Shown in pieces: positions 1 through 14,805 of a stretch of DNA of 64,000 bases. A program made the position numbers and the translations under genes. Numbering within the stretch: position 1 is the first letter of the stretch; each line of letters starts with the position of its first letter. The notes below the pieces were generated by a model. That model was not told the DNA's origin. It saw only the letters and a list, made by a program, of their open reading frames with translations, and made no database searches. This DNA comes from Patescibacteria group bacterium (GTDB lineage: Bacteria; Patescibacteriota; Microgenomatia; Levybacterales; UBA12049): NCBI GenBank assembly GCA_038063415.1, contig JBBTVD010000006.1, positions 137,948 to 201,947 of the forward strand, read 5' to 3'.

Positions 1-687
1 ATTGGTTAACTTACGTTTTTGCCCTACTTCCCACAGCTTTGTCGTATTGGAGTACATGGTGTGTTCTGTCGCAACCTGCCTTCCGAGTCGTCCTTCATCT
101 CGCCAAAAGGTAGGATAGCCAACAGAAAACTGATTAATATCATTATGCTGAGCCCATCCATAATCAACGATCTGCCCTAGTGCATTGGCTGGCCCTGGGG
201 TATTGGCTCCACCAACATGAGCATACAAGGGATAATTGCCATAGCCTGAAATGAGATCAAGAAAATACGTACGAGCAGAACGTACAGGCCCGACAATACC
301 TGCATCGTTACAATAATAGATATTGAGAGTTCGAGTAATTCCCCCCTCGGCAACTGCTTCAAATGTCACGTCGGAAGCATTAATTCCTGACTGAGGACGA
401 GCATCAAGATGGTTTTCAACCATGACACCAAGCGGCCGATGTTTTTCCCACCAATTACGTTGGGTCTTTGAATACTTCTCACCCGTAAGAGGACACACTT
501 CCGTTTTTGGTTCATTGGGATTAAAAAGAATTGCTTGATAGTCATTTTCAAGGTTTGTTTTCAGAGGCATATCAGATGCTACAGGTGTTGTTTGCGTAGA
601 CTTCTGCTCTAAGAAAACATTATAGGAAAGAAACGCCGCAACTGCGTAAATTATCAGGCTTAAAATGCCAATGACGAGTTTATTCAT
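1..687 (-). CDS. DUF3048 domain lipoprotein-like protein (YerB-like); its C-terminal part is cut off by the window start
   Basis: Hand translation of the minus strand from the ATG at 687: MNKLVIGILSLIIYAVAAFLSYNVFLEQKSTQTTP...NPNEPKTEVCPLTGEKYSKTQRNWWEKHRPLGVMVENHLDARPQSGINASDVTFEAVAEGGITR. The N-terminal signal/TM segment, CPLTG motif and ENHxDARPQSG...AEGGITR block are typical of DUF3048. The ORF runs off the window edge, so it is absent from the ORF track. Confidence 0.6.
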   Translation of the reverse strand, partial: MNKLVIGILSLIIYAVAAFLSYNVFLEQKSTQTTPVASDMPLKTNLENDYQAILFNPNEPKTEVCPLTGEKYSKTQRNWWEKHRPLGVMVENHLDARPQSGINASDVTFEAVAEGGITRTLNIYYCNDAGIVGPVRSARTYFLDLISGYGNYPLYAHVGGANTPGPANALGQIVDYGWAQHNDINQFSVGYPTFWRDEGRLGRQVATEHTMYSNTTKLWEVGQKRKLTN

Positions 688-707
688 AAGGCAGAACCAA
701 AAAAATG

Positions 708-1193
708 CTATTTGGTATGCTCAGCTAGACTTAAGGCTCTCTTCTCTTCATCAGAGAGTTCATGTTCGATACCCTTACCTTTTACTACCCTCTTTGCGTA
801 CCATCGCATCCCTGTTCGAGCGTAGAGCGCAGTAATGACGACACCGGTATCGTACGAATCTGCCAGTGTCAGAATGAAACTATGATCACCTCCAGTATCT
901 TTAAAAGGGTTAAATCGAAGGAGGCCTATCTTCTGAATGTGCAATCGCTCTTCTTTTTCTATTGTAGCACAGCGACTCATCAGTTCAGCAATGGCTTGTT
1001 GTGACTTAGTATTTTCCTTGATAATTTTGGTCAGCACGGTATCAAGTGTATTGCGGCTTACTCCTCCGGTAAAGAGCATATATCGAGCATGTAATCGACG
1101 GAAAGAAAACGTCAACCATCCAACCCAAACAAGCAAAATAAGTAATAGTATAAAAATAGGCGTATCCATATGAATCAAACTGTCTCCTGCCAT
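708..1193 (-). CDS. DUF4446 family protein
   Basis: 161-aa ORF with an N-terminal TM segment and an LLRFNPFKDTGGDHSFILTLAD block resembling the DUF4446 family. Confidence 0.5.
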   Translation of the reverse strand: MAGDSLIHMDTPIFILLLILLVWVGWLTFSFRRLHARYMLFTGGVSRNTLDTVLTKIIKENTKSQQAIAELMSRCATIEKEERLHIQKIGLLRFNPFKDTGGDHSFILTLADSYDTGVVITALYARTGMRWYAKRVVKGKGIEHELSDEEKRALSLAEHTK

Positions 1194-1242
1194 ATTAGCC
1201 TCTTGACAGCCTGAGTGTCAATAGTGTAATCTAGGCTCATTC

Positions 1243-1539
1243 ATGCCTAAAAAGAGAAAAACTCGCCAGCAAAAGATGCAAAGCGTTGATCGGCAAAAAA
1301 GTCCCGTTGCTCAAGCCAAACAGGATCTTTCTCCTGAGCCATATACTTACTCTCTCCCTCAAACAACGGTATCGGCAATTGGTCTAAAGACACCTTCTGT
1401 TGCCCAAAAGACTGCATCGATAACCGTTAGTGAATATGCATATCTTGGAGGTGACCTCCGCAAAACACTCCTTCTGACATTAGCAATTGTTATCTGTCAG
1501 CTATTACTGTTTTTCTTTTTACCAGGCGTTTATAAATAA
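1243..1539 (+). CDS. hypothetical protein with C-terminal hydrophobic segment
   Basis: 98-aa ORF with a Lys/Gln-rich N-terminus and a C-terminal TM-like stretch. No recognisable family. Confidence 0.3.
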   Translation: MPKKRKTRQQKMQSVDRQKSPVAQAKQDLSPEPYTYSLPQTTVSAIGLKTPSVAQKTASITVSEYAYLGGDLRKTLLLTLAIVICQLLLFFFLPGVYK

Positions 1540-1566
1540 GTAAACGTGAAGGGGGGTGATTATACT

Positions 1567-1710
1567 ATGGCATCAATGTATTGTGTAAAATGTCGCGACA
1601 AGCGAGATGTTGAAGACCCAGAACAAGTAACCATGAAAAATGGTAAACCAGCTTTGAAGGCAAAATGTCCAGTTTGTGGTACAGGAATGTACAAAATCGG
1701 ATCAAAGTAA
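1567..1710 (+). CDS. small zinc-ribbon protein (DUF5679-like), 47 aa
   Basis: Hand-found ORF MASMYCVKCRDKRDVEDPEQVTMKNGKPALKAKCPVCGTGMYKIGSK with a CxxC...CxxC arrangement. A strong RBS (GAAGGGGGGTG) lies 8 nt upstream and a rho-independent terminator follows. It falls below the ORF-track length cutoff. Confidence 0.55.
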   Translation: MASMYCVKCRDKRDVEDPEQVTMKNGKPALKAKCPVCGTGMYKIGSK

Positions 1711-1730
1711 TTTGTTTCCTAAGAAACAAT

Positions 1731-1758
1731 AAAACCCCGCATTATTGCGGGGTTTTTG
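1731..1758. terminator. rho-independent terminator hairpin (AAAACCCCGC-ATTATT-GCGGGGTTTTT), potentially bidirectional
   Basis: Perfect 6-bp GC-rich stem (1735-1740 and 1747-1752), flanked by an A-run upstream and a T-run downstream. Confidence 0.6.
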
Positions 1759-1781
1759 GTATGATGAAATAGTAGCCACGT

Positions 1782-3383
1782 ATGTTTACTTCGATCAAAC
1801 ACTTTTTTGCAGCAATTGATAAAGCACTCGCTGTCTCAGAAAAATATATTGACAAACGAATCCTTACGGGAAAATTTGTTGAGGATCTTGTAACACTTAC
1901 TGTGTTAGGCAAAAAGTATCTCAAAAAGCATTGGCCTGATTGGTGCAAAAAGATTCTGGCCGCACCTATCACCAAACTACTCATTAAGATCGCTCTTTTC
2001 AGTATAGGAATCATGAGAAAAATCCCCATCTTCGGAGAGATTGTACCGCTCAGTGCAGATGGTTTTAATCTGTGGGGAAAGTTTTTTAACCAACTTTCTT
2101 TACTTTTTCTGAGTACCTTGCTTCTCTTTTTTGGACAAGTTTTACTCCTCAATAATTCTCTTTTACTCTTTTTTATTACCCTCCCCCTTTCGCTGCTTCT
2201 GCTTCTTTTAACCATCATAACAACCTATGCTCTCTTGCAAAAAAGGGATGAAAAAAAGCCCACAAAGTCATTGGCTGAAATAAAAGAAATACTCAAACAG
2301 TCTTTTTTCTCTTTTTCATTTTTATTTTTCTATCACCTTTTTATTTTATTGAATATCTTGATACTTTTCTTTTTGTTTGCTTTCTTTTTACAAACAAGCT
2401 TTAACGAGTTTACAAGTACATGGACTTCTTCGTTTATTTTCTGGTTAAGTATTCTTTTTGTTGGCTCACTGCTTCTTTTCTGCGCAACTCTTTTTAGCTT
2501 GATAGCCTGGCAGGCATATTTTGGCGTTATTTTTGCGCAACAAAAAACTTTTTCTTCGCTTGTTCTTAGTTGGCAATTGCTCAAGAGGCATGCTTCAGTT
2601 CTTTGTTTTTTCCCTTTATGTATCGTTTTTCTTTCCATTCCTGCCGTAGAATGGGCAGGACTCCAACATACTATCTCGGGCAGCAGTTTAGGTCTTTTTC
2701 TCCTCTTTCATATTCTTCTCTTTCTGGGGTGGCTGATGCGAAGAAGATTTCTAGATACCCAGCAACCAGAAGGAATCAAGCGGCCAGCAAATATGCGAGT
2801 TTTTCATATACTTTTTGGCATTGGAGTACTCAACTATATACTGCTCACTACCACGATGGTTCAGTTTAACCCGCAGATTTCTGTTTACATTCAAGAGCTA
2901 CGAAATCAACTCCTTCTCTTACGAGTTTTTGAGACCTATACCAACAAGCAATTTGGCTATACGATCCAATATCCTACCTCATGGAGCGTCTATGAATGGG
3001 ATCAACGGAAACAATCAGTAACTCTTTATACCAACGAAACCAAAACAGAAAACGGAGGTATCTGGGTAACAATTACCGTACTGCCTGTGAAGGAAACAGA
3101 GTTTGAAAACTTGCTGTCTGAAAAACCAGGACTTATTAGCTATGATACAGGAACTAGAGACCTTGTTAGCAAAATTACTAATTTTTCTCTGCAAGAATAT
3201 CAAGGACTTGAGTATACCTACATAAAAGAGGCCAAACCTTATGCAGAATACCAAAAACACTACCTTATCAGACGTGGTGACAATGTCTATGATATCTCCC
3301 TCCGAACAAATAGCAGAGAAGTTGAGGCACAGAATAGTATGCTTTTTAGAAAGATTATCGATTCATTCAGACTCACTAACTGA
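1782..3383 (+). CDS. polytopic membrane protein with a C-terminal soluble domain (PsbP-like/DUF-type fold suspected)
   Basis: 533 aa. About 10 hydrophobic helices fill the first 380 aa. The C-terminal ~150 aa (YTNKQFGYTIQYPTSWSVYEWDQ...) is non-membrane and resembles PsbP-like beta domains. No catalytic motif recognised. Confidence 0.35.
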   Translation: MFTSIKHFFAAIDKALAVSEKYIDKRILTGKFVEDLVTLTVLGKKYLKKHWPDWCKKILAAPITKLLIKIALFSIGIMRKIPIFGEIVPLSADGFNLWGKFFNQLSLLFLSTLLLFFGQVLLLNNSLLLFFITLPLSLLLLLLTIITTYALLQKRDEKKPTKSLAEIKEILKQSFFSFSFLFFYHLFILLNILILFFLFAFFLQTSFNEFTSTWTSSFIFWLSILFVGSLLLFCATLFSLIAWQAYFGVIFAQQKTFSSLVLSWQLLKRHASVLCFFPLCIVFLSIPAVEWAGLQHTISGSSLGLFLLFHILLFLGWLMRRRFLDTQQPEGIKRPANMRVFHILFGIGVLNYILLTTTMVQFNPQISVYIQELRNQLLLLRVFETYTNKQFGYTIQYPTSWSVYEWDQRKQSVTLYTNETKTENGGIWVTITVLPVKETEFENLLSEKPGLISYDTGTRDLVSKITNFSLQEYQGLEYTYIKEAKPYAEYQKHYLIRRGDNVYDISLRTNSREVEAQNSMLFRKIIDSFRLTN

Positions 3384-4928
3384 TGGATTGTAGGGAACAA
3401 GCTTGTAGAGTGTACCTACTGCTACTGGCCACTCAGCAACGATCTCTGCACGACCAAAGCCGGCAATCTCCCATAATGAATTTCCAAGTGGCTCACAGGG
3501 TCCCTCACAGAGGACAAACAGCTGTGCTGTTGTCGTATCCCTTTTAGGATCGATAGCATCACTCTCAATGAGAACTGGGTCTTGCTTGTAATAAGAAAAA
3601 TAATAACGATAAGCATGATCAGAATTTCCACCGGAAAGCAATGCAAAGTTGAACGGTTTTCCTCCTGTTTTAGATAAAATAAACTGAGAAAGTTTTTGTA
3701 CCTGAATTTTCTGTTTGTGAGAGGGGTAGCGGAAAGGAGCATCAATAAGATTAAAAAGGAATAAGGAGAAAAACAGTACTATACTCAAAACCAAGCATAC
3801 TTTCTTTGTCCCTTTCTTTTTTCCCCAAGAAGAAAAAACAGAAAGTGCATTACCAACAAGAAGAAAAGGTAGTGGAAAAAGGATTACCATATGATAGTCC
3901 AAAATTTCTTTTTTATTAATACCAAAAAGGATAAGACTCATACTAAGCCAAAGGGATAAAAGCAAAGTAACGAGTTTATTTTTGATAAAAAGCATACCGA
4001 TGAGTGCAGCTAACCCCAGAAGAACAGCAGCCGTTAACCAAAGAAACAATGTCGTTTGTGGAAACATTGCTGAGATATCGGGCAATGGGTAATGGAAAAG
4101 TAGCCGACCAAATAAACGGAAGAATGCGTCGTATATGTGTCCAAAAAATGAACCATTGCCTTCATATGTTCCTCCTTGCAGCGTATCTCCAAAGATAAAA
4201 AGAAAGATTGCTTGCGTATTGGGGAATCCATGACGAACTTCAAAGGCAATAAAGGCGATAAATCCAATAAGAAAACCAAGAAATAACTGTGCATATTTTT
4301 TAAGATAGATTAGCAGTTGTATTTTTCGCTGTTGATACCAGAGACCGAGAGGAAGATAGACCACAACTATAGCAAAAAGAAATAACGAGAGATAATGCAG
4401 TTGGATTGCAATACCAAGCAAGAAGCCGGTTAGGATAACGTATCGATAAGATTTTACTGCCGTAATACTTTTATAGGTTGTATAGATAAGCAGCAAAGCA
4501 ACAAAGGGAAGCACATTGGGATTCCAGGAAGAGCGTGAATAATGAATTATTAAGGGAGAAACAGCATATAATGCTGCTGCCATAATCCCCGCTCTTTCAC
4601 TAAAAAAGCGTTTACCGACAAAATAGATAAGAAAAACGGTTGCTACACCGACAAGCGCAACCATCACAGCCGGCCCCACAGGATCGTACTGAAAAAGCCA
4701 AAGGAAGGGGGTAATCATATAATAATACGCTGGCCCCATGAAAAAATCTCCAGCAGAGGATCGTGGGCCAAGTAACGTGAGGTTACCTTCAAGTATTCCT
4801 TTGGCAATCAAAACATCTCGTCCTTCGTCGCCTAGAAAGGTCATATAATCCGAGATATTGTACAGCCGGAGAAAAGTTGCTAGCAGCAAAATACCAATAA
4901 GTAGGGCAAGCGATATTTTGTTTTTCAT
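3363..4928 (-). CDS. GT-C family glycosyltransferase (GT39/GT83, PMT/ArnT-like dolichyl- or polyprenyl-phosphate-sugar:protein/lipid glycosyltransferase)
   Basis: 521 aa and polytopic. It has a DE motif in the first extracytoplasmic loop (FLGDEGRDVLIAKG) and the YYYMITP...HYSRSSWNPN pattern typical of ArnT/PMT GT-C enzymes. Confidence 0.7.
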   Translation of the reverse strand: MKNKISLALLIGILLLATFLRLYNISDYMTFLGDEGRDVLIAKGILEGNLTLLGPRSSAGDFFMGPAYYYMITPFLWLFQYDPVGPAVMVALVGVATVFLIYFVGKRFFSERAGIMAAALYAVSPLIIHYSRSSWNPNVLPFVALLLIYTTYKSITAVKSYRYVILTGFLLGIAIQLHYLSLFLFAIVVVYLPLGLWYQQRKIQLLIYLKKYAQLFLGFLIGFIAFIAFEVRHGFPNTQAIFLFIFGDTLQGGTYEGNGSFFGHIYDAFFRLFGRLLFHYPLPDISAMFPQTTLFLWLTAAVLLGLAALIGMLFIKNKLVTLLLSLWLSMSLILFGINKKEILDYHMVILFPLPFLLVGNALSVFSSWGKKKGTKKVCLVLSIVLFFSLFLFNLIDAPFRYPSHKQKIQVQKLSQFILSKTGGKPFNFALLSGGNSDHAYRYYFSYYKQDPVLIESDAIDPKRDTTTAQLFVLCEGPCEPLGNSLWEIAGFGRAEIVAEWPVAVGTLYKLVPYNPSVSESE

Positions 4929-4932
4929 AATA

Positions 4933-6090
4933 CTAATTATTTTTCAAATGTTGTGTTTTCCAAATAATATAATTATAGATAAAGTAATTCATAGGAATAA
5001 TGATAAGAATAATAGTAGGCACAAGGATGATAAGTGAGGTTGGAACGTCATAGCCAAAAAGATATTGATGAGAACCTAAGAAATTTACGGCGAGATAGAC
5101 AACTCCACCTTGAGTGAAAATAGAAGCAAGAGAAGCAACATTAAACTTGATCAGACGATTAAAGAAATGGCCTTGCTCTTTGATATGTTTGGTATCACCA
5201 AATGTCCATGTGTTATTAATTAAGAAGTTAGAGAGGATAGCAACTTCCCCACCAATCATTGCTGCGATAAACTGTTCGGCACCTAGCTGGATGCTTACGG
5301 CTGTGGTAACCATTTGTAGAAAAAATCCCGTTCCTCCCGTAACAAGGAACTTAAAGAATCTCTTGTGGTCATAAATTCCAAGTCTCAGAACAACATAGAG
5401 CGATTCAAATTGATCACTCGTACTGATCTTACTTTTACCCTCTCCTCGTTCTTTAAAGACAATCGGCACTTCAACTACTTTTGCTTTTAGTTGTAAGATA
5501 TCATGGAGAATCTGCATTTTATAAGCAAAGGTATGAGACAGTAGATTATCGAGATCTATCTTACGCAGATAGCTAGACTTCGTTAATTTAAAGCCAGATG
5601 TGACATCATGAACAGTAAAATTAAACCAGACAACACGAGCCACCCAGTTTCCGACAACACTGAGAAACTTCCGATCAAATCCCCACTCTTTTGGAATGCT
5701 CCCTCCAGCGATGTATCTACTACCAATGACACAATCTGCTCCTTTATCCATTGCTGAAATAAGTCGAGGGATATCATAAGGATCGTGCTGAAAATCAGCA
5801 TCAAATTCCATAACGGCATCTGCTTGCATTTCTTTCATGGCATATTGCATACCACGGACATACGCTGCTCCCAAACCTTGTTTGGTTCCCGAAAGTAACT
5901 TAATCGTATGCCATTTGTGCATAAAAGCTTTTACCTCATCAGCCGTTCCATCAGGAGAAGTATCATCCACAATAAGCAGTGACACCTGATGGTTTTTAAT
6001 TGTTGGGAGAATTTCTTGTTGCAGAAGCGGAATCATCTTTCTGATGTTTTCCCGTTCGTTATAGGTAGGTAAAATAATAACAATCTTCAT
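4933..6090 (-). CDS. GT2 polyprenyl-phosphate glycosyltransferase (DPM1/Ppm-like) fused to a C-terminal GtrA-like membrane domain
   Basis: IILPTYNEREN...LIVDDTSPDGT...EFDADFQHDP is the DPM synthase-type GT2 signature. The C-terminal 120 aa has four TM helices of GtrA type. Confidence 0.75.
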   Translation of the reverse strand: MKIVIILPTYNERENIRKMIPLLQQEILPTIKNHQVSLLIVDDTSPDGTADEVKAFMHKWHTIKLLSGTKQGLGAAYVRGMQYAMKEMQADAVMEFDADFQHDPYDIPRLISAMDKGADCVIGSRYIAGGSIPKEWGFDRKFLSVVGNWVARVVWFNFTVHDVTSGFKLTKSSYLRKIDLDNLLSHTFAYKMQILHDILQLKAKVVEVPIVFKERGEGKSKISTSDQFESLYVVLRLGIYDHKRFFKFLVTGGTGFFLQMVTTAVSIQLGAEQFIAAMIGGEVAILSNFLINNTWTFGDTKHIKEQGHFFNRLIKFNVASLASIFTQGGVVYLAVNFLGSHQYLFGYDVPTSLIILVPTIILIIIPMNYFIYNYIIWKTQHLKNN

Positions 6091-7049
6091 GCGTTTCTAA
6101 AATAGTCTATCGTCCTTTTCAACCCTTCATCCAGACCAATCGTTGGCTCCCAATTTAAAAGCTTCTTTGCCTTTGTTATGTCCGGCTTCCGCTGTAATGG
6201 ATCATCAGCAGGCAGTTCATCAAAAAATAATTGAGAGGTTGATCCGGTCATTTTTTTAATTATTTCGGCAATTTCGACGATGGATCGTTCGTCAGGATTG
6301 CCAAGGTTCATTACCTCGCCATCGGTGCCTTCCGTCATCATTGCCCGAATAATACCTTCAATCAGATCGTCAACAAAACAGAAGCTTCTTGTTTGTTTAC
6401 CGTCACCAAATACGGTTATTGCAGCTCCAGTTAATGCCTGATTAATAAAAGATGAAACAACTCTTCCATCGTCCTTTTGCATATTTGGGCCATAGGTATT
6501 AAAGATGCGGATAATTCTTGTATCAACTCCGTATCTTCTTCTATGCCCAAAGGTCATTGCTTCACCAAATCGTTTTGCTTCATCATAGACAGATCGTGCG
6601 CCATTCGGGTTTACATTGCCAAAATAGGTCTCTGGCTGTGGGGAGATACTCGGATTGCCATACACTTCGGAAGTAGAAGCAAAAAGAAATTTAGCTTTCT
6701 TTTCCCGTGCCAGATTGAGTAAGTTATGCGTACCCACAGAACCAACTAAGAGTGTTGCAATTGGATGAGCAATGTAACTTCGGGTGCTGTATTTGTTGGG
6801 AGAAGCTGGTGAAGCAAGATGGTAAATATAGTTCACATCTTCAAATCGATCAGCAATAGCATCAAGTGGCTTAGTCACATCATGTCCAAAAAAAGCAAAT
6901 TGTGGGTTATCAAGAAAAGGAACAATGTTGTTTTTGTCCCCAGTAAGCAGATTATCAATACAAAAAACTTTTTGTCCCTCATCTAAGAGACGTTTACACA
7001 AATGTGAGCCAAGGAATCCTGCCCCACCGGTAATTAAGGATGTCACCAT
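6087..7049 (-). CDS. uxs: UDP-glucuronate decarboxylase (UDP-xylose synthase, UXS/ArnA-decarboxylase type SDR)
   Basis: TGGAGFLGSHLCKRLL Rossmann motif, YDEAKR catalytic YxxxK, and an overall UXS-like sequence (FNTYGPNM). Confidence 0.75.
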   Translation of the reverse strand: MVTSLITGGAGFLGSHLCKRLLDEGQKVFCIDNLLTGDKNNIVPFLDNPQFAFFGHDVTKPLDAIADRFEDVNYIYHLASPASPNKYSTRSYIAHPIATLLVGSVGTHNLLNLAREKKAKFLFASTSEVYGNPSISPQPETYFGNVNPNGARSVYDEAKRFGEAMTFGHRRRYGVDTRIIRIFNTYGPNMQKDDGRVVSSFINQALTGAAITVFGDGKQTRSFCFVDDLIEGIIRAMMTEGTDGEVMNLGNPDERSIVEIAEIIKKMTGSTSQLFFDELPADDPLQRKPDITKAKKLLNWEPTIGLDEGLKRTIDYFRNA

Positions 7050-7146
7050 AGCCTCTATCTTACTAAATTTGGAAGCTTTTTGGAAGAGAGAGTATTTTTG
7101 GGGATTGCAACTACTTGGTAAAATTAGTATTATAATTTCATTCTGT

Positions 7147-8151
7147 ATGGCAAAGAAAGCATTAATTATCGGCGTTTCTTCACAAGATGGATCATACCTT
7201 GCTGACCTGCTGCTGGAAAAAGGCTATGATGTCACAGGAACGATTAGAAGAACAACAAACTACTACCATCCGAATATTACTCACCTCTACGGAAAAATAG
7301 CTATTGAAGCAGCAGATCTTATCGATAGTGAAAGTATCATTAACGCAATTAAAAAAAGTACACCTGATGAAGTCTACAATATTGCAGCACAATCCGTTCC
7401 TGGTGATTGCTGGACACATCCTTTTTATACCGGTGAAGTAACTGGTCTTGGACCTGTACGAGTTGCCGAGGCAATAAGACATTTCGCTCCCAATGCGAAA
7501 TTTTATCAAGCTACTTCTCGTGAAATTTTTGGCAATATTGCATCTGAATCTGCAAATGAATCAACACTCTTTGATGCCAACAATCCCTACGGCATCGCAA
7601 AAGCGTATGCACATATGATGATACGCTCTTACCGTGAGTCTTATGGTATGTTTGCCTGTGGAGGTATTTTATTTAACCACGAAAGCCCACGTCGAGGATT
7701 ACATTTTGTTACCCGAAAAATTACTGCCGGGGTTGCTTGTATCAAAAATAAAGTTAAAAATCTGCCAATGAATGAATTAGGAGAACCTCTCATCAGTAAC
7801 GATGGCAAACTACATATGGGCGATATAACGATGAAGCGAGATTGGGGATATGCCAAAGAATATGTTGAAGCAATGTGGCTGATGCTGCAACAAGATAAAC
7901 CAAATGACTATGTTATTGGGACAAACACCACCTACTCCATTGAGGATGCCTGTCGTATTGCATTTGCACACGTAGGGCTTGATTGGAAAGACTATGTCGT
8001 CAGTAACAAAAAACTCTTCAGACCTACCGAAATCAAAGAACTCAAGGGAGATTATGCGCGTGCAAAGAAAGATTTAGGCTGGGAACCAAAAACATCATTT
8101 GAGGAGCTTATTACCATGATGGTTGATGCGGATCTTAAGCACTTTAGTTAA
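7147..8151 (+). CDS. gmd: GDP-mannose 4,6-dehydratase
   Basis: MAKKALIIGVSSQDGSYLADLLLEKGYDVTG...ATSREIFG...NPYGIAKAYAHMMIRSY...GILFNHESPRRG are classic Gmd blocks. The track ORF 6925-8151 carries an N-terminal extension across the divergent promoter region, so the ATG at 7147 was chosen. Confidence 0.85.
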   Translation: MAKKALIIGVSSQDGSYLADLLLEKGYDVTGTIRRTTNYYHPNITHLYGKIAIEAADLIDSESIINAIKKSTPDEVYNIAAQSVPGDCWTHPFYTGEVTGLGPVRVAEAIRHFAPNAKFYQATSREIFGNIASESANESTLFDANNPYGIAKAYAHMMIRSYRESYGMFACGGILFNHESPRRGLHFVTRKITAGVACIKNKVKNLPMNELGEPLISNDGKLHMGDITMKRDWGYAKEYVEAMWLMLQQDKPNDYVIGTNTTYSIEDACRIAFAHVGLDWKDYVVSNKKLFRPTEIKELKGDYARAKKDLGWEPKTSFEELITMMVDADLKHFS

Positions 8152-8170
8152 ATTAAGACGAACTCTCCAG

Positions 8171-9127
8171 TTACACTTCTTTTCTCCAGTAATCAAGAAT
8201 TGCTTTAAGGCTCTCTTCAAGTGAAATTTCAGGCTTCCAACCAGTCAGATTATGCATCTTACTTGTATCTGCACGGATTTCAGGGACATCACTTGGTCGC
8301 AATTTTGTTGCATCTACTTCAGGATGAATAGCGACCGATGATAAAGAAAGTAAGATATCAAGCACTTCTTGTATTGAATGAGAGACACCTGAACCAATAT
8401 TGTAGACCTCTCCCTCTTTACCTCTTTCGAGGAGTAGGACATATGCTCGTACCATATCGCGAACATCAGTAAAGTCTCGACGAGCCTCTAGGTTGCCAAT
8501 ATGGATGATTGGTTTTTGTTTACCTTTTTCTATATGTGCAATTTGTCTAGCGAAGTCTGAGGTGACAAATCCTGTTTTTTGACGAGGGCCAATATGGTTA
8601 AATGGCCGTACACGGATAAGTGGTAATTGATATGAAAGGTAATACTGTAGTGCTATATAATCCTGGGTTATCTTTGATACAGCATAAGGATTTACTGGAC
8701 GAAATGGCGTTGTTTCTTTTATAGGAATATCTTGCGGATCAAGTCTTCCGTACGTCTCAGCTGAACCGACAATCAGTACTCGTGTCGATACGAACGATTG
8801 CTCACGAAGGACATCAAGAAGATATATTTGTGAATCAATATTTGCATGAAGGGTTTTAATTGGATCCTCAAAACTCTGTGGGACATTTGATTGGGCAGCT
8901 AAGTGATAGACATAATCAGGATGACTCTGTGCAATGGCAACTCGAACTGCTTGTTTATCGGTAAAATCTGCTTTAATGAAATGAATGTTGTCTTTGACTG
9001 GTGAACGATCAAGACTTCCCTCAGAAGAATAGGTTCCGTAGATTTCTGCTTCACCTTTTTGCAACAAGTATTCACACAGATATCCACCAACAAAGCCAGA
9101 GGCCCCAGTAATTAATATGCTTTTCAT
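8171..9127 (-). CDS. rmd: GDP-4-dehydro-6-deoxy-D-mannose reductase (GDP-D-rhamnose synthase, Rmd-type SDR)
   Basis: ITGASGFVGGYL...SAETYG...NPYAVSK...RPFNHIGPRQKTGFVTSDFARQIA...DFTDVRD closely parallels Pseudomonas Rmd. It sits next to gmd. Confidence 0.7.
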   Translation of the reverse strand: MKSILITGASGFVGGYLCEYLLQKGEAEIYGTYSSEGSLDRSPVKDNIHFIKADFTDKQAVRVAIAQSHPDYVYHLAAQSNVPQSFEDPIKTLHANIDSQIYLLDVLREQSFVSTRVLIVGSAETYGRLDPQDIPIKETTPFRPVNPYAVSKITQDYIALQYYLSYQLPLIRVRPFNHIGPRQKTGFVTSDFARQIAHIEKGKQKPIIHIGNLEARRDFTDVRDMVRAYVLLLERGKEGEVYNIGSGVSHSIQEVLDILLSLSSVAIHPEVDATKLRPSDVPEIRADTSKMHNLTGWKPEISLEESLKAILDYWRKEV

Positions 9128-10410
9128 CGTCCAACACCAACGTAGGTAAATCCTAATCCTTTGACTGTTTCAGGATCGTAGATATTTCGTCCATCAATAA
9201 TGGTTGGTTTCTTAATTAGTTTTTTTACCTTTTGCAGATCAATCTGCTTAAATTCATTCCATTCGGTGACTATTACCAGAATATCTGCCCCCTCGACACA
9301 GGTATAAGGATCATCAACAAAAGTGACCTTATCTTTAAAGACTGCTCGTGTCTTTGGAATACCTTCAGGATCATACGCTGTTACCTTAAATCCTTTTTGC
9401 AGGAGGTCTTGAATTAAATATGTTGCAGGTGCTTCTCGGATATCATCAGTATTTGGCTTGAAGCTCAACCCCCAAACTGCAACATTCTTCCCTTTTGTAT
9501 TGTCCAAAATTTTCTGTAACACATTTTCTCGAGCTTGAGTGTTTACACTATCAACGCCATCAAGAAGTGTCGTATCAATCCCAAGCGAATGACCTATTTG
9601 AATGAGGGCTTTCACATCCTTTGGAAAGCATGAGCCACCATACCCAATACCTGGGTTCATAAAAACACGCCCAATCCGTTTATCAAGGCCAACAGCATCA
9701 AGAACCTCCTCAATGTTGGCACCTGTTTTTTCACTATAAAATGAAATTAAATTCGCAAAAGAAATTTTTGTGGAAAGAATTGCATTTGCCGTATATTTAA
9801 TCAATTCTGCTGATGCCAAATTGGTAATAACACGAGGCGCATCAATTCCTTCGTGAAGTGTCACCATACTATCAATTGCTCTTTTTGAGTCTGAACCAAT
9901 AACTACTCTATCAGGGTGGAGTGTATTGGCAAGGGCAGTTCCCTGGCTTAAGAATTCAGGACAGGAAGCAATCGCAAATGCAGCGTCTTTTGGCTTTACG
10001 GAATTAAGAATTTCTGCTACCTTTTCATTTGTACCGATCGTTACGGTACTCTTACAAGAAACAACAGTAAAGCCTTTTTTCAAATGTTTACCAATTTTTT
10101 CGGCGACAGTAAATACAGCAGAGAGATCAGCAGCACCTGATGTCTGGGGTGGAGTACCGACAGCAATAAAGACCACATCAGATTCACTAACTGCTTTCTC
10201 ATATTCTGTGGTAAAGTTCATTCGCTTTGCCTTAAGATTCTTTTTGAGTAGCTCTTCAAGCCCTGGCTCAAAGATTATTGGATCACCCTTTTTGAGGCGT
10301 TCAATTTTTTCTGGAGTATGTCCGATGACATGTACCGTATTGCCCAAATCAGCAAAGACGCTTGCAGTAACCAGTCCTACGTATCCATGGCCGACAAAAG
10401 TAATCGTCAT
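9124..10410 (-). CDS. ugd: UDP-glucose 6-dehydrogenase
   Basis: MTITFVGHGYVGLVTA N-terminal NAD motif, catalytic Cys region GGSCFPKDV, and a UDP-Glc/GDP-Man dehydrogenase family architecture. It is adjacent to uxs. Confidence 0.8.
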   Translation of the reverse strand: MTITFVGHGYVGLVTASVFADLGNTVHVIGHTPEKIERLKKGDPIIFEPGLEELLKKNLKAKRMNFTTEYEKAVSESDVVFIAVGTPPQTSGAADLSAVFTVAEKIGKHLKKGFTVVSCKSTVTIGTNEKVAEILNSVKPKDAAFAIASCPEFLSQGTALANTLHPDRVVIGSDSKRAIDSMVTLHEGIDAPRVITNLASAELIKYTANAILSTKISFANLISFYSEKTGANIEEVLDAVGLDKRIGRVFMNPGIGYGGSCFPKDVKALIQIGHSLGIDTTLLDGVDSVNTQARENVLQKILDNTKGKNVAVWGLSFKPNTDDIREAPATYLIQDLLQKGFKVTAYDPEGIPKTRAVFKDKVTFVDDPYTCVEGADILVIVTEWNEFKQIDLQKVKKLIKKPTIIDGRNIYDPETVKGLGFTYVGVGR

Positions 10411-10463
10411 ATAAGAATAAAACTAAGAATAAACTAATAACCCAGTAAATGCAATAGTTAATT

Positions 10464-11345
10464 TCACTCTATCACCGGGCTAACCTCATGTATTGCATCT
10501 GAAAAAGACCGCATCGTTAGCCCAAGTTCTGTAATCTTGTTATTGTTTAATGCTATATTATACGGACGAGGAGCCTTCCCGGAGAAATATTCTGCGCGGG
10601 TTGTCTCGCTAATCAGTGAACGATCATAGCCAAACCTCTCGGCAATGAGTAAGGAAGCTTCGTACGGAGTAAGACTCTGCCCCCCAACAATATGATAAAT
10701 ACCTTGGGAATCGCTTGTTATAAGCTTATCAAGAGCAAATGCAATATCGTCAATATAAGTTGGACTCATAACATGGTCCGTAACAGCACGGATTTCTTGT
10801 CCTGTTGATAATCGATCCATAATTGCATGAACAAAGTCTTTTTTCACTGCAAAGGCATCCTTACGGAATGGATAAGCAAGCCTTGCAATAATAAATGGCA
10901 AGCTCGACTCACGAACATGTTCTTCTCCTAAATACTTTGTCTGCGCATACCAATTGACTGGGTTACAATCATCCTCTTCAGTGTATCCTCCCTCTGGAGC
11001 GTTTTCTCCGTCAAAAACAAAATCAGTTGAGATATAGATAAATTTTTTATTTGTCGGAAGACAGGCATCAAGGACGTTTTGCGTTCCCAAAACGTTTATT
11101 TTGTAAGCGGAACCATCCTCACCAAGCAAACGATCTGCCTCACACCCATCAACGTCTGCTTTTGCAGCCATGTGGATCAACAACTCATGTTCTTTGTCAT
11201 TGCGTATTGGCCCAAGTGTTGTCGGGTCCGTTATATCTACGCCACTTTCAAGACTAAATTGATCAACAATATAATTCTTAGAAAGAAGCTCTACGACACG
11301 AGAGCCAACAAGGCCAGATCCACCGATCATAAAAATCTTCTTCAT
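10464..11345 (-). CDS. rfbD: dTDP-4-dehydrorhamnose reductase
   Basis: MKKIFMIGGSGLVGSRV...ISTDFVFDG...NWYAQTKYLGE is the RmlD signature (STDxVFDG, YxxxK). Confidence 0.8.
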   Translation of the reverse strand: MKKIFMIGGSGLVGSRVVELLSKNYIVDQFSLESGVDITDPTTLGPIRNDKEHELLIHMAAKADVDGCEADRLLGEDGSAYKINVLGTQNVLDACLPTNKKFIYISTDFVFDGENAPEGGYTEEDDCNPVNWYAQTKYLGEEHVRESSLPFIIARLAYPFRKDAFAVKKDFVHAIMDRLSTGQEIRAVTDHVMSPTYIDDIAFALDKLITSDSQGIYHIVGGQSLTPYEASLLIAERFGYDRSLISETTRAEYFSGKAPRPYNIALNNNKITELGLTMRSFSDAIHEVSPVIE

Positions 11346-11890
11346 AGCTGTACCTTCCCTTCTTTTAATAACGTATTGAGTAATAAAATACCAGCTACAT
11401 GCGAAGCGACAAGTATTTCTCCAGATAATGCTTTTGCAACAGCCTCTGAAAAAGGCATCTTTACCACAGAAATGGCCTCATCAGCATTAGGACTCGCTGT
11501 ACCTTCTTGCACATCAAAAGCAGCAAAGATATAATTCGTTGAACGCATATTTGCTGAGACTTCCCAGGTAGCAATTTTTTCTAATCGACCGGCAGTTAAA
11601 CCCGTTTCTTCCTTTAGCTCTCGCTTTGCTGTTTCAATCGGATCGTCTCCAGACTCAATTGTTCCAGCGCAAATTTCCAATATTTCTTTCTGAAATGAAT
11701 CACGATATTGTTGCAATAAATATATTTCTCCATTTTTGCTTAGAGGAAGGATGAGAGCAGCTGCATTTCTCTCGATAAAATCTTTGGTAAAAGTTCTGCC
11801 ATTTCTCTCTATCTGTTTTTGTACCACACGAAAATACTTAGCCTGATACATTGTTTTTTCTGAGAGAATCCGGGTCGAATTATTTGCCAT
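11342..11890 (-). CDS. NUDIX hydrolase (possibly GDP-sugar/ADP-ribose pyrophosphatase)
   Basis: NUDIX box GTIESGDDPIETAKRELKEETGL. The track ORF extends to 11950 and overlaps rfbB. The ATG at 11888-11890 (MANNS...) overlaps the rfbB stop by 11 nt in ATGGCAAATAA, suggesting translational coupling. The ATG at 11851 is an alternative start. Confidence 0.65.
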   Translation of the reverse strand: MANNSTRILSEKTMYQAKYFRVVQKQIERNGRTFTKDFIERNAAALILPLSKNGEIYLLQQYRDSFQKEILEICAGTIESGDDPIETAKRELKEETGLTAGRLEKIATWEVSANMRSTNYIFAAFDVQEGTASPNADEAISVVKMPFSEAVAKALSGEILVASHVAGILLLNTLLKEGKVQL

Positions 11891-12890
11891 ATTGCTTTGC
11901 GTAATACTCTTGATACTCCCCTGATTTAATACTTTTCCACCACGATTCATGTTCTGTATACCAAGTTACTGTCTTTTCGAGCCACTCCTCGAACGTATGT
12001 TGTGGTTGCCATCCCAGTTCGTTTTTGATCTTTGACCAGTCGACATCATACTTACGATCATGCCCTGGCCTATCTTTGACAAATGCAATAAAGCTTTCGT
12101 CTTTGCCAAGCAATTGAACAATCATTTTGACAATTTCAATATTGGGCTTAAGTTCGGTCATTCCACCGACAAGATAGGTCTCTCCTATTTTGCCTTTCTG
12201 CAACACCAAATCGATAGCACGAGCATGGTCATCAACATATAACCAATCACGAACATACAGCCCATCACCATACACAGGAACCTTTTTGCCTTCCAGTAGG
12301 TTGGTAATAGCCAGTGGAATTAATTTCTCCGGAAACATATAGGGGCCAAAATTGTTTGAACAATTGGTAATCGTAATTGGCAACCCATAGGTTATGTTAT
12401 ATGCCCTGACCAAATGGTCAGATGCTGCTTTACTGGCAGAGTACGGACTACGTGGAGAATAAGGAGTATCTTCAGTAAACTTCTTGTGATCTTCAAGTTC
12501 TAGTGATCCAAATACTTCGTCTGTTGAGACATGATGAAAGTGTTTAATGTTCTTTTTGAGAGCCGCATCCAGAAGCACTTGCGTACCAAGCACATTTGTT
12601 TCTATAAAAACGGCAGGTCCGATAATAGATCTGTCTACATGCGTCTCAGCAGCAAAATGAACGATAGTATCGATTCCTTCCATTGCGGAGGATACAGCCG
12701 CAGGATCACAAATATTTCCATGAACAAACGCGTAGTGAGGGTTATCTTGCACAGAGCGAAGATTTCCCAAATTACCAGCATAAGTTAATTGGTCAAAATT
12801 AACAATGTGATCACCAGGATGTTCACGCATCCAATAAAGGATAAAGTTAGAACCAATAAATCCAGCTCCACCGGTAACAAGCAGTTTCAT
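11880..12890 (-). CDS. rfbB: dTDP-glucose 4,6-dehydratase
   Basis: MKLLVTGGAGFIGSNF...VSTDEVFG...YSASKAASDH is the canonical RmlB. Confidence 0.9.
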   Translation of the reverse strand: MKLLVTGGAGFIGSNFILYWMREHPGDHIVNFDQLTYAGNLGNLRSVQDNPHYAFVHGNICDPAAVSSAMEGIDTIVHFAAETHVDRSIIGPAVFIETNVLGTQVLLDAALKKNIKHFHHVSTDEVFGSLELEDHKKFTEDTPYSPRSPYSASKAASDHLVRAYNITYGLPITITNCSNNFGPYMFPEKLIPLAITNLLEGKKVPVYGDGLYVRDWLYVDDHARAIDLVLQKGKIGETYLVGGMTELKPNIEIVKMIVQLLGKDESFIAFVKDRPGHDRKYDVDWSKIKNELGWQPQHTFEEWLEKTVTWYTEHESWWKSIKSGEYQEYYAKQYGK

Positions 12891-12897
12891 AAATGTA

Positions 12898-13623
12898 TTA
12901 TGCCAATTCGCCTTTCTTTACTTTTTCGGCGATAAAGTTATTTACACGCAGAAGTCCATCAAAAGTTCCAGCATCTTCCCACCAGCCATTGAGGACGCTT
13001 ACCTTCAATTCTTTGGTCTTAAAGTACTGCATATAGAGATCAACAATCTCGATCTCTCCCCGATCTGAAGGCTTGAGATCGAGAGCAAATTCCGAAGCAC
13101 GGTTATCAAAAACGTAAATACCAGGTACAGCAAAGTTGCTCTTTGGCTCTTTTGGTTTCTCAACAACAGAAAGCACATTGCCCTCTGAGTCAAATTCAAC
13201 GACAGCTGACTTCTCAGGATCTGCGACTTTTTTTGCAAAAATATGTCCTCCACTTTTAAAGTTTTTGATAGGATCAGTGAAGTCATCCTCAAAAATATTA
13301 TCTCCAAGAATCATCGTTACATTGTCTCCCTTGATAAAATCCTTCCCGACAATAAACGCGTCGGCCAATCCCCGCGGCTCTTCCTGAATTTCATACGTAA
13401 ACTTTACGCCAAATTCTCTCCCTGAACCGAGTAAATTAAGAAAATGACCAGCATATTGTGGAGCAATAATGATAAGAATTTCCTTAATTCCTGCCTGAAT
13501 AAGCGTATTCAGTGGATAAAAAATCATGGGTTTATTATAGACAGGCAAAAGCTGCTTCGAGGTTATTTTGGTCAATGGTCGAAGGCGTGTAGCACTTCCT
13601 CCAGCAAGAATAATTCCTTTCAT
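12898..13623 (-). CDS. rfbA: glucose-1-phosphate thymidylyltransferase (short form)
   Basis: MKGIILAGGSATRLRPLT...KQLLPVYNKPMI...GDN... 241 aa, short RmlA type. Confidence 0.8.
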   Translation of the reverse strand: MKGIILAGGSATRLRPLTKITSKQLLPVYNKPMIFYPLNTLIQAGIKEILIIIAPQYAGHFLNLLGSGREFGVKFTYEIQEEPRGLADAFIVGKDFIKGDNVTMILGDNIFEDDFTDPIKNFKSGGHIFAKKVADPEKSAVVEFDSEGNVLSVVEKPKEPKSNFAVPGIYVFDNRASEFALDLKPSDRGEIEIVDLYMQYFKTKELKVSVLNGWWEDAGTFDGLLRVNNFIAEKVKKGELA

Positions 13624-13639
13624 AATGTACTGTTCATCC

Positions 13640-13900
13640 TTAGAAATTAAAAAGAAACAAGGACAGGATGAACCCTAAGCTTCCTATTAGGACATATTCT
13701 ATCACAATTTTTAATGGGATGTTATGATGAATTGCATGGTGGAGTAGCCCCCAGGTAATGTAGAAGAGAGTCAAACCTAAAACAATAACAATCTGCATAT
13801 TTTTGTCTCCTTGCACCAAAAAGAGTAACAAAATACACACGCTTGCAACAACGAAAGAGACGCAGTAGTACCAAATATGCTTCATAAAGTCGCTATTCAT
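13640..13900 (-). CDS. small membrane protein (2-3 TM)
   Basis: 86 aa and highly hydrophobic. It is tightly spaced between rfbA and the CAP-domain gene. Confidence 0.3.
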   Translation of the reverse strand: MNSDFMKHIWYYCVSFVVASVCILLLFLVQGDKNMQIVIVLGLTLFYITWGLLHHAIHHNIPLKIVIEYVLIGSLGFILSLFLFNF

Positions 13901-14805
13901 TATAAAATTACTCCTTTCCCAATGAGTATACCAGCAATAAGCAGCGCCGTTAGAAAGATAATATGATCAATGTTGTGCGCCACGATACGCGTTACTTGTT
14001 TACGCCCAATGACAATTGCGTCGATAATAAGTACACCAATAAAGAGAATAAAAATAAATAATGCGATATTTCTTGTGGTTGATTTACTATCAATAAGTGG
14101 TCTGTTTTCCAGAGATGCAACAATCTCTGGAGCGCCTCGTTGTTCGTCATTAAAAGGATTGACTGATGCTTCAAAACTTACTCGAGGGATAGCTGGTGTC
14201 GGGAAAGTCTGTCCAAGCGTTGTGGGTTGTTGTTCCTGAGCAATATATTTTGTGCCAAACATTTCTACCACAAGTACCGTATCTGAACCAGTCAATTCAC
14301 CTGTTTTAATAGCAAAACCAACCTCATTATAATTTGGTGAAAGCATATTTTCTTTGTGAGAAGGACTATGTATCCATGCCGTGACTACCTCAGGAGCGGT
14401 AGTAAATCCACGAGCAAGATTTTCTCCCGCATAAAGATATTCATAGCCGCTATTTCTGATAAATAACCACGGGGTTGTTCCATCGGGAGCAATATGTGCC
14501 CAGTAATTCTTGGTAAACATATGATCAGCTTTTAACGTAGCTGCGGTTGAAAGTTGGTCATTGAGACGCAATGGTGTTAAGCCTTCTTTTTCCCGTTCTT
14601 TGTTGGTTAAGGTGAGAAGCTCTTGCGCTGAGATATCGGCGGTAATACTCAGAACAGCAGGATAGTCACGTCGTACAAGAGTACTGGATACACTGATGAT
14701 GCAGAGAGCAATAACAAGCACAAAGAGACTCTGGTGATGTAATACTTTGGGACGGTGGTTATTGGTATGATGTGGTACAAAAAGATGCCGCAAAAAACTG
14801 AACAT
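13900..14805 (-). CDS. CAP/SCP (cysteine-rich secretory protein family) domain protein, membrane-anchored
   Basis: N-terminal TM, then a CAP domain (GLTPLRLNDQLSTAATLKADHM...WIHSPSHKENMLSPNYNEVGFA), then a two-TM C-terminal anchor. Confidence 0.6.
   Translation of the reverse strand: MFSFLRHLFVPHHTNNHRPKVLHHQSLFVLVIALCIISVSSTLVRRDYPAVLSITADISAQELLTLTNKEREKEGLTPLRLNDQLSTAATLKADHMFTKNYWAHIAPDGTTPWLFIRNSGYEYLYAGENLARGFTTAPEVVTAWIHSPSHKENMLSPNYNEVGFAIKTGELTGSDTVLVVEMFGTKYIAQEQQPTTLGQTFPTPAIPRVSFEASVNPFNDEQRGAPEIVASLENRPLIDSKSTTRNIALFIFILFIGVLIIDAIVIGRKQVTRIVAHNIDHIIFLTALLIAGILIGKGVIL

Follow-up and report, generated by a model that had tools for sequence, protein, structure and literature searches.

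Gram-positive multi-component (three-component) glycosylation systems such as CsbB/GtcA/YfhO, GacI/GacK/GacL, CsdA-F/CflA, and GtsABC combine a GT-A glycosyltransferase that makes a C55-P-monosaccharide, a separate GtrA-type protein, and a GT-C enzyme with a PMT_2 domain that acts outside the membrane, the GT-A and GT-C genes being adjacent (Rismondo, Gillis, Gründling, PMC8035078). The PMT_2 enzymes described there (GacL, CsdD, CsdF, GtsC, GtlB, GttB, GtcC, and YkcB) decorate lipoteichoic and wall teichoic acids, rhamnan, and secondary wall polysaccharides, and their top structural homologs are ArnT, STT3, AglB, and PglB (PMC8035078). In this study, we analyzed a 64-kb stretch of DNA (hereafter the window, 64,000 nucleotides of contig JBBTVD010000006.1) from a bacterium of the Patescibacteria, or Candidate Phyla Radiation (CPR), belonging to the Levybacteria. 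Ten tightly packed genes at 3363-13623, among them a GT2-GtrA fusion gene paired with a gene for a GT-C enzyme, were found to form what is best explained as a cell-surface glycan island of this Levybacteria-type CPR bacterium.

The island shares with the multi-component systems a GT-A enzyme predicted to make a polyprenyl-phosphate (Pren-P) sugar, a GtrA-type element, and a PMT_2 GT-C predicted to act outside the membrane, together with adjacent GT-A/GT-C genes and the same structural neighbors (ArnT, STT3, AglB, and PglB). Rhamnose-pathway genes are also nearby, as in the group A carbohydrate (GAC) and lactococcal rhamnan loci (PMC8035078). Judged by its genes, the island has the architecture of a multi-component system for transmembrane glycosylation, and its layout and set of domains match those in Tables 1 and 2 of PMC8035078. 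It differs from these systems in that GtrA is fused to the GT-A, that this GT-A resembles dolichol-phosphate mannose synthase (DPMS) rather than CsbB or GacI (PgfS, 64 bits; ArnC, 47 bits), that polymer-assembly genes are absent from the window, and that the host is a CPR bacterium. We consider it likely that the GT2-GtrA and GT-C proteins constitute an extracytoplasmic glycosylation module, composed of a lipid-phosphate-sugar synthase/flippase and a GT-C transferase and fed by the nucleotide sugars of the island. A literature search on polyprenyl- or undecaprenyl-phosphate xylose and on CPR glycosylation found no description of such an island.

Gene organization of the island

The genes were called from the open reading frame (ORF) listing and from Pfam and NCBIfam scans of the window proteins. 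The ten genes, of which gmd alone is on the plus strand, are as follows.

3363-4928, minus strand: GT-C glycosyltransferase, 521 aa (Pfam PMT_2, PF13231, 43 bits, E = 7e-11)
4933-6090, minus strand: GT2-GtrA fusion protein, 385 aa (PF00535, 88 bits; PF04138, 59.8 bits)
6087-7049, minus strand: UXS, UDP-glucuronate decarboxylase, 320 aa (human UXS1, 4gll, 316 bits, E = 2e-93)
7147-8151, plus strand: Gmd, GDP-mannose 4,6-dehydratase, 334 aa (1rpn, 329 bits; PF16363, 336 bits)
8171-9127, minus strand: Rmd, GDP-6-deoxy-D-lyxo-4-hexulose reductase, 318 aa (2pk3, 280 bits; 6x3b, 199 bits)
9124-10410, minus strand: Ugd, UDP-glucose 6-dehydrogenase, 428 aa (three UDPG_MGDP_dh domains)
10464-11345, minus strand: RmlD-family 4-ketoreductase, 293 aa (PF04321, 183 bits)
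11342-11890, minus strand: Nudix hydrolase of the NudF/ADP-ribose-pyrophosphatase type, 182 aa from the ATG at 11890 (PF00293, 59 bits; NudF 5c7q, 66 bits)
11880-12890, minus strand: RmlB, dTDP-glucose 4,6-dehydratase, 336 aa (TIGR01181, 481 bits against a cutoff of 365)
12898-13623, minus strand: RmlA, glucose-1-phosphate thymidylyltransferase, 241 aa (1lvw, 257 bits)

The inverted gmd, which diverges from uxs across a 97-nt spacer and converges on rmd, divides the island into two minus-strand units, rmlA-rmlB-nudix-rmlD-ugd-rmd and uxs-GT2GtrA-GT-C, and uxs is the first gene of the latter. Overlaps of 4 nt were found at the ugd/rmd and Nudix/rmlD junctions and between uxs and GT2-GtrA, where the start codon of the fusion gene lies over the stop codon of UXS, and a gap of only 4 nt separates GT2-GtrA from GT-C. 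With the ATG at 11890, rmlB and the Nudix gene overlap by 11 nt, and these junctions indicate that the Nudix gene is translationally coupled to both rmlB and rmlD. A longer Gmd ORF starting at 6925 was recognized as an upstream over-extension. A promoter and terminator scan of 3000-14200 gave counts no higher than those of shuffled sequence.

The nine genes named in the original prediction, which was made from the letters of the window, were all present where it had placed them, with strong family matches, and so were the three nucleotide-sugar branches it had described (UDP-xylose, GDP-D-rhamnose, and dTDP). Its list lacked the Nudix gene at 11342-11890, between rmlB and rmlD.

Conservation across Levybacteria

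The census consisted of 80 loci from a scan of a genome collection (species-level genomes, mostly Candidatus Levybacteria; loci carry L numbers), and the ORFs of all census loci were classified by BLAST against the window proteins. The GT2-GtrA gene was located directly upstream of the GT-C gene in 79 of the 80 loci, the exception (L046) carrying a 2.6-kb insertion, and UXS was directly upstream of GT2-GtrA in 70 of 77 loci; an apparent UXS/GT2-GtrA exception in L073 was traced on inspection to an artefact of ORF calling and corrected. Gene presence was counted in the 64 loci whose upstream sequence covers 9 kb or more, giving 63 for Gmd, 63 for Ugd, 61 for Rmd, 61 for RmlB, 59 for the RmlD-like protein, 58 for UXS, 51 for RmlA, and 35 for Nudix. 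The order was fixed as rmlA-(nudix/cupin)-rmlB-(nudix)-rmlD-ugd-rmd-gmd-uxs-GT2GtrA-GT-C, its usual upstream border being a CAP-domain protein and its usual downstream border DUF4446. The island is a super-operon conserved throughout this lineage of ultra-small groundwater bacteria.

Two loci (L004 and L006) have only uxs, GT2-GtrA, and GT-C together, with unrelated genes upstream, and the other island genes were undetected in their 8-10 kb of upstream sequence. Seven loci (L008, L012, L029, L045, L062, L065, and L081) carry the pair without an adjacent UXS, and no UXS from the contigs of these loci was among the top 120 UXS homologs.

Several local variations were also observed. The gmd of the window is 75-81% identical to the inverted gmd genes of L025, L049, L052, L054, L070, L076, and L083 but only some 50% identical to the gmd genes that run with the island in the other loci; by this sequence comparison, the inverted gmd looks like a gene displacement in situ. 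Where the window has its CAP-domain protein, a single GT2 ORF lies upstream of rmlA in L008, L011, L012, and L029, and L089 (OZ246394.1, positions 1-3451), of the nearest clade to the window, carries a tandem array of four Leloir-type GT2 genes immediately upstream of rmlA. The island of OZ246394.1, a complete genome, has no UXS. In L087 (7034-9793 of a 1.14-Mb contig), the genes are fragmented into a GT2 of 284 aa without GtrA, a PMT_2 protein of 240 aa, and a 236-aa piece, reflecting either pseudogenization or assembly frameshifts.

The GT2-GtrA fusion protein

Among solved structures, the closest relative of the GT2-GtrA protein was PfDPMS from Pyrococcus furiosus (PDB ID: 5mlz; 162 bits, E = 2.6e-46, 33.6% identity over 345 aa), the other solved relatives being far weaker (ArnC, 44 bits; GtrB, 29 bits). 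The two proteins have the same architecture of a GT2 domain followed by a four-helix GtrA/DPMS membrane domain; namely, the PF04138 GtrA domain of the window protein covers residues 247-377, the alignment with 5mlz continues into the transmembrane region, and the four C-terminal helices match the GtrA/DPMS transmembrane family.

The PfDPMS residues that bind GDP, the metal, mannose, and the phosphate of dolichyl phosphate (Dol-P) were reported by Gandini et al. (PMC5526996), and these site residues were mapped onto an alignment of the window protein with its 80 relatives. Y10, E12, D39, G68, L69, D89-A-D91, R117, R131, S135, R202, and K208 were kept in essentially all 80 relatives, with D89 and D91 of the DAD motif invariant throughout, and the F177 position was occupied by Phe or Tyr in all of them (Phe in the window protein). 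The window protein carries the motifs PTYNEREN, SPDGT, and DADxQH. Its Q93 and H94 were both kept in subgroup A of the family and variable in part of subgroup B, Q93 being present in 15 of 15 subgroup-A and 38 of 65 subgroup-B proteins. By contrast with PfDPMS, every one of the 80 Levybacteria proteins has Ala, Ser, Thr, or Ile in place of K178 (Ala in the window protein). K178 of PfDPMS contacts the mannose hydroxyls (PMC5526996).

The replacement of K178 was considered as a clue to donor specificity and rejected, because subgroups A and B are equally close to PfDPMS (33-34% identity) and because human DPM1 presumably likewise lacks a Lys at this position. The protein further differs from PfDPMS in its genetic linkage to UXS and GT-C, its bacterial host, and its lipid, presumably of the undecaprenyl type.

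These alignments assign the GT2-GtrA protein as a type-III DPMS homolog and a putative synthase of polyprenyl-phosphate sugars. The designation Ppm-like in the original prediction is thus upheld, since PfDPMS is the closest solved relative and the donor, metal, and acceptor-phosphate residues are kept, and so is the pairing with a GT-C enzyme, the two genes being adjacent. GDP-mannose would be the default donor by homology, although homology at this level would leave the sugar open. Genes annotated as 'dolichol-phosphate mannosyltransferase' have been reported in several copies in CPR genomes (PMC4736985). The transmembrane domain of PfDPMS has recently been proposed to flip the enzyme's own glycolipid product (PMC12992685); by analogy, the four-helix GtrA/DPMS domain of the window protein is a candidate flippase.

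Two subgroups of GT2-GtrA proteins were distinguished, one (subgroup A) being 58-72% identical to the window protein and carrying the motif F-A-Y-K, and the other (subgroup B) being 35-51% identical and carrying G-Y-[T/I]-F-Q, while the partner GT-C varied smoothly at 46-58% identity. These identities suggest that the synthase diverged faster than the GT-C or was replaced. The subgroups did not correlate with the presence of UXS, the UXS-less loci comprising three in A and four in B.

The GT-C enzyme

The GT-C protein is 100% identical to an NCBI entry, 'MAG: glycosyltransferase family 39 protein [Patescibacteria group bacterium]', and the contigs matching it originate from Hainich groundwater. 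It has thousands of relatives, mostly from Ca. Levybacteria, the best 120 of which are 51-65% identical. A profile and an AlphaFold model were built on an alignment of 25 orthologs, likewise at 51-65% identity.

In Pfam, the window GT-C matched PF13231 (PMT_2) only, even at E <= 1, and gave no match to PF02366 (PMT); six of the 25 orthologs did match PF02366, and none of the 25 matched PMT_4TMC at E <= 1. The only NCBIfam match was TIGR03663 (Agl23), at 31 bits against a cutoff of 126. The sole sequence match of the 25-ortholog profile in the PDB was yeast Pmt2 (E = 0.029 over 90 residues), and no ArnT chain was among the PDB profile matches at E <= 1. At the sequence level, the GT-C thus belongs neither to the GT39 PMT family nor to ArnT. 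A loop-1 motif, FLGDEGRD, containing D34 and E35, was invariant in the 25 orthologs; an Asp-Glu motif in this loop is also common to other GT-C families. C474 and C478, within the soluble C-terminal alpha/beta domain (approximately residues 400-521), were invariant as well.

The AlphaFold (AF2) model had a predicted local distance difference test (pLDDT) value of 85 and a predicted TM-score (pTM) of 0.85. Its top Foldseek matches were ArnT structures 5f15 and 5ezm (TM-score 0.61-0.63, E = 9e-8, about 595 aligned columns), followed by ALG12, AglB, STT3, and PglB; the first PMT, Pmt4 (9i5k), ranked 23rd (TM-score 0.53, E = 9e-5). The model thus predicts an ArnT-like fold, with a GT-C membrane core and a C-terminal domain of the periplasmic type. 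The C-terminal domain was examined as a clue to the acceptor and discarded as such: modeled alone (pLDDT 83), it gave no Foldseek match at E <= 0.001.

The nucleotide-sugar pathways

The UDP-xylose pathway is complete as genes, with Ugd and UXS. Ugd scored 444 bits with the TuaD model and 430 bits, against a cutoff of 190, with the NDP-sugar (nucleoside diphosphate sugar) dehydrogenase subfamily. UXS is of the UXS1 type (316 bits) rather than the ArnA type (about 90 bits), and its close relatives are named 'UDP-glucuronic acid decarboxylase family protein' by NCBI. The GDP-D-rhamnose pathway is likewise complete as genes, with Gmd and Rmd, and 2pk3, the top structure match of Rmd, is the Rmd of Aneurinibacillus. 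In the S-layer glycan clusters of Aneurinibacillus and Geobacillus (Gmd-Rmd, RmlABCD, FdtA), D-rhamnose and dTDP-sugar branches are combined as they are here, the window Rmd is closest to that of A. thermoaerophilus (280 bits), and FdtA-type cupins occur in five of the related islands. Unlike those clusters, the island carries no Leloir glycosyltransferases, ABC exporter, or WsaB-type O-oligosaccharyltransferase.

In the dTDP branch, RmlA aligned with chain residues 4-242 of the 295 of 1lvw and scored 287 bits with TIGR01207, under the cutoff of 361. It is a short form without some 50 C-terminal residues of the solved enzymes of 290-300 aa, and short forms were found in related islands too. 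In canonical RmlA, the part absent here contributes to the allosteric/tetramer region, and feedback control may differ from that of the canonical enzyme. The RmlD-like protein scored 187 bits with TIGR01214, under the cutoff of 224, and its best PDB match was RmlD 3sc6 (98 bits). It carries the canonical RmlD motifs STDFVFDG and YAQTK (YxxxK) and is 53-60% identical to RmlD-like proteins from islands with RmlC or a related cupin (L016, L026, L031, and L032). A bifunctional epimerase-reductase of the plant/virus type was excluded, since the S-T-D-F motif is canonical and the S/T-x-Cys motif is absent.

The original prediction had found no RmlC and had cautioned that the dTDP product might not be L-rhamnose. 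The absence of RmlC from the window was borne out by a tblastn search over all 64 kb with five cupin/RmlC/FdtA representatives, which found neither RmlC nor any other cupin (best E of about 1). In the related islands, 54 of which hold both rmlA and rmlB, a cupin of any kind (RmlC, FdtA, or a type referred to here as cupinA) was encoded in only 19. The scarcity of island-encoded cupins in the relatives mildly strengthens the doubt on L-rhamnose, and the caution is a reasonable one. From the gene content, the product would be L-rhamnose only if RmlC is encoded elsewhere in the genome, and otherwise another dTDP-6-deoxyhexose.

Where cupins do occur in the census, their type and their position in the rml segment vary. 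True RmlC (PF00908, two types) was found in L011, L016, L031, L032, L049, L054, L076, L078, and L083, and an FdtA-type (PF05523) 3,4-ketoisomerase in L015, L022, L030, L050, and L067. CupinA is a 147-aa cupin with weak FdtA and Polysacc_synt_C matches, present in 12 loci including L026 (1684-2145). Levybacteria species probably differ in the dTDP-sugar that they make.

Nudix genes, of which there are two types, occur in the rml segment of 40 of the 54 islands: together with a cupin in 13 and alone in 27, six having a cupin only and eight neither. A role of the Nudix protein as a functional replacement of RmlC was rejected, because Nudix genes co-occur with cupins in those 13 of 54 islands and the window protein is an ordinary NudF-type hydrolase. 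By analogy with Gmm/NudD of colanic-acid clusters, it may act as an NDP-sugar hydrolase, and it probably trims or regulates an NDP-sugar pool.

Proposed reaction scheme and candidate sugars

In the proposed scheme, RmlA and RmlB followed by the RmlD-like reductase would yield a dTDP-6-deoxyhexose, Ugd and then UXS would yield UDP-glucuronic acid (UDP-GlcA) and UDP-xylose, and Gmd and then Rmd would yield GDP-D-rhamnose. The DPMS-type GT2 domain would transfer one sugar from its nucleotide form to polyprenyl phosphate at the cytoplasmic face. The fused four-helix GtrA/DPMS domain would anchor the synthase and may flip its product, and the ArnT-like GT-C, with its acidic loop-1 motif (D34/E35), would pass the sugar to an acceptor outside the membrane. 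The gene identities, their architecture, the fold, and the lineage-wide operon conservation on which this scheme is built were shown by the analysis.

As to the donor, mannose is put first on the strength of the DPMS homology, with somewhat less than even confidence. Xylose, suggested by the linkage to UXS, is a tentative second candidate, and D-rhamnose and any other sugar are each regarded as rather improbable. On the gene arrangement, however, the UXS linkage would point to xylose at least as strongly as to mannose, and D-rhamnose enters this list in that it is GDP-linked and manno-configured and that rmd-gmd lie just upstream. As to the acceptor, a wall glycopolymer, for example a rhamnose-containing one, is given close to an even chance, Ser/Thr residues of secreted proteins are a possible but less favored target, and a lipid or other acceptor is unlikely. 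The preference for a wall polymer is drawn from the rhamnose-pathway genes of the island and from the GT2 genes upstream of rmlA in relatives, and the latter, Leloir-type genes fit a polymer that is built in the cytoplasm and decorated outside.

Several points weigh against the proposed module. Sequence fixes neither the donor nor the acceptor. The DPMS-like signatures favor GDP-mannose, which is not specially made by the island, and the UXS linkage favors xylose, yet in seven of the 77 islands the pair is present with no UXS next to it. None of the solved structures is significantly related to the GT-C in sequence, and none matches its C-terminal domain in structure. Apart from the pair, the 64-kb window encodes no glycosyltransferase, exporter, or ligase; Leloir glycosyltransferases, ABC or Wzx exporters, and LCP ligases were all absent; with no polymer-assembly genes in the window, the wall-polymer acceptor is argued from relatives and by analogy.

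Alternative explanations

The alternative that fares best is an Arn-like pentose pathway, in which UDP-xylose would be converted to polyprenyl-phosphate xylose, from which the GT-C would xylosylate an extracytoplasmic acceptor. Its logic is that of ArnA/ArnC/ArnT, where a UDP-GlcA decarboxylase, a GT2 Pren-P-pentose synthase, and a GT-C act in turn. Of all the sugar genes, uxs is the most tightly linked to the pair, being adjacent in 70 of 77 loci and overlapping by 4 nt in the window, and L004 and L006 keep only these three genes together. Moreover, ugd and uxs are split by rmd-gmd, so that uxs groups with the transferases and not with its own pathway partner, and in structure the GT-C comes closest to ArnT. 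Set against these points, the GT2 domain resembles a GDP-mannose enzyme and not a UDP-pentose enzyme such as ArnC (only 44 bits), seven islands keep the pair without an adjacent UXS, and no paper was found that ties polyprenyl-phosphate xylose to a gene. The decarboxylase is UXS1-type rather than ArnA-like, the GT-C has no ArnT sequence match, and the island carries no aminotransferase, formyltransferase, or deformylase. Nor is lipid A expected to occur in CPR bacteria. We regard this pathway as a tentative possibility.

A more specific form of it, in which a DPMS-derived synthase would have switched to UDP-xylose and the ArnT-like GT-C would xylosylate the surface of a cell with no outer membrane, is held with still more reserve. 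A dolichyl-phosphate D-xylosyltransferase activity was described biochemically decades ago. If this form is true, it would provide the first gene assignment for a lipid-phosphate-xylose synthase and an Arn-like pentose modification outside Gram-negative lipid A.

Protein O-mannosylation of the Ppm1/Pmt type, in which the GT2-GtrA protein would make polyprenyl-phosphate mannose and the GT-C would O-mannosylate Ser/Thr in Pro/Thr/Ser-rich (PTS-rich) linkers of secreted proteins, was the reading of the original prediction and now appears unlikely. In keeping with it, the best-scoring solved relative of the GT2-GtrA protein is a proven Dol-P-Man synthase (162 bits; ArnC, 44 bits; GtrB, 29 bits), and nearly all DPMS donor and acceptor residues are kept. 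Like the Ppm1/Pmt (GT39) system, the island pairs a DPMS-family synthase with a GT-C showing Asp-Glu in loop 1 and a Pfam match within the PMT clan (PMT_2 in the window protein, PF02366 in six of 25 orthologs), and Pmt2 is the only PDB sequence match of the GT-C. The proposed mirroring of actinobacterial Ppm1/Pmt was nevertheless not supported, in that the GT-C has PMT_2 only, with no PMT or PMT_4TMC domain and a C-terminal extracytoplasmic alpha/beta domain instead, ArnT is its best structure match and Pmt4 only the 23rd, and the Pmt2 match is marginal (E 0.029, 90 residues). Since PMT_2 is common to wall-polymer glycosyltransferases, a match to it is no sign of protein mannosylation. Unlike in Ppm1/Pmt, the two genes are adjacent and lie inside a nucleotide-sugar operon, and the lineage-wide linkage to the UXS, Gmd/Rmd, and Rml genes would be left unexplained. 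The original prediction took a grouping of the GT-C with ArnT or with wall-polymer modifiers rather than with PMTs to speak against protein glycosylation, and the modeled structure approaches such a grouping.

The substrates put forward for this reaction were surface proteins described as having Pro/Thr/Ser-rich linkers, namely an LTD protein, a GH26 protein, a subtilase, and the N-terminus of a giant ATPase. With a threshold of 60% P+T+S over 25 residues, PTS-rich segments were confirmed in the LTD protein, whose PT-rich linker spans 28 residues (145-172), and in the N-terminus (31-102) of the ClpB-like ATPase of 1329 aa, and were absent from GH26 and the subtilase. The LTD protein is secreted; the ATPase has no signal-peptide-like hydrophobic N-terminus and is of a cytoplasmic family, as Clp-family ATPases are. 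The case for protein substrates in the window is thus weak, and protein O-mannosylation is one option for the module and not the favored one.

The least probable alternative is mere co-location, with the pair serving as a housekeeping envelope module and the sugars being used by Leloir enzymes encoded elsewhere. In its favor, Leloir glycosyltransferases acting on dTDP-, GDP-, or UDP-sugars are missing from the island, so that at least two of its three sugar products must be used by enzymes encoded elsewhere, and the downstream DUF4446, DUF3048, and SecDF are equally conserved and housekeeping-looking. Against it, an order and orientation kept in about 60 of 64 genomes with overlapping junctions would be hard to maintain without co-regulation, and the triad is retained in loci that lack the other island genes.

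Neighboring genes

The gene at 1782-3383 on the plus strand encodes a multi-pass membrane protein of 533 aa whose C-terminal domain is PsbP-like; it converges on the GT-C gene, the two 3' ends overlapping by 21 nt, and homologs of 23-36% identity are found in the same position in L008, L012, L015, L016, L019, L029, and L038. Downstream of the GT-C gene (1243-1710, plus strand; 708-1193, minus strand) lie genes for a 98-aa protein with a C-terminal transmembrane segment, a 54-aa zinc-ribbon DUF5679 protein, and DUF4446. The same set occurs in L001, L003, L004, and L088, followed by DUF3048 and SecDF.

Elsewhere in the window, two ClpB-like AAA+ ATPases are encoded at 41632-45621 and 37090-39501, both on the minus strand. 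The 1329-aa one has a Pro/Thr/Ser/Ala-rich N-terminal extension of about 70 residues (31-102) and, past the ClpB D2-small domain, additional C-terminal sequence. At 45674-49951 on the minus strand is the gene for a protein of 1425 aa that starts with a signal-peptide-like segment and has no Pfam match. A 104-aa ORF at 14852-15166 on the minus strand, adjoining Sua5/TsaC and TsaE, matched only the N-terminal part of the TsaD/TsaB family and represents a truncated gene or else a TsaB of very small size.

Implications for the surface of Levybacteria

CPR/Patescibacteria live attached to other cells, and to our knowledge almost nothing is known experimentally of their surface chemistry. The island is kept nearly intact in some 80 Levybacteria genomes, counted at the species level, although their gene complements are very small, and such conservation makes it probable that the product is central to the surface of this lineage. 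For this uncultivated group, the ten genes provide a compact, tractable set for learning which sugars are displayed, and the two-protein GT2-GtrA/GT-C pair could be reconstituted in vitro. Should the donor be xylose or D-rhamnose, bacterial glycobiology would gain a new lipid-linked sugar carrier; should it be mannose transferred to proteins, Pmt-type O-mannosylation would be extended beyond the Actinobacteria.

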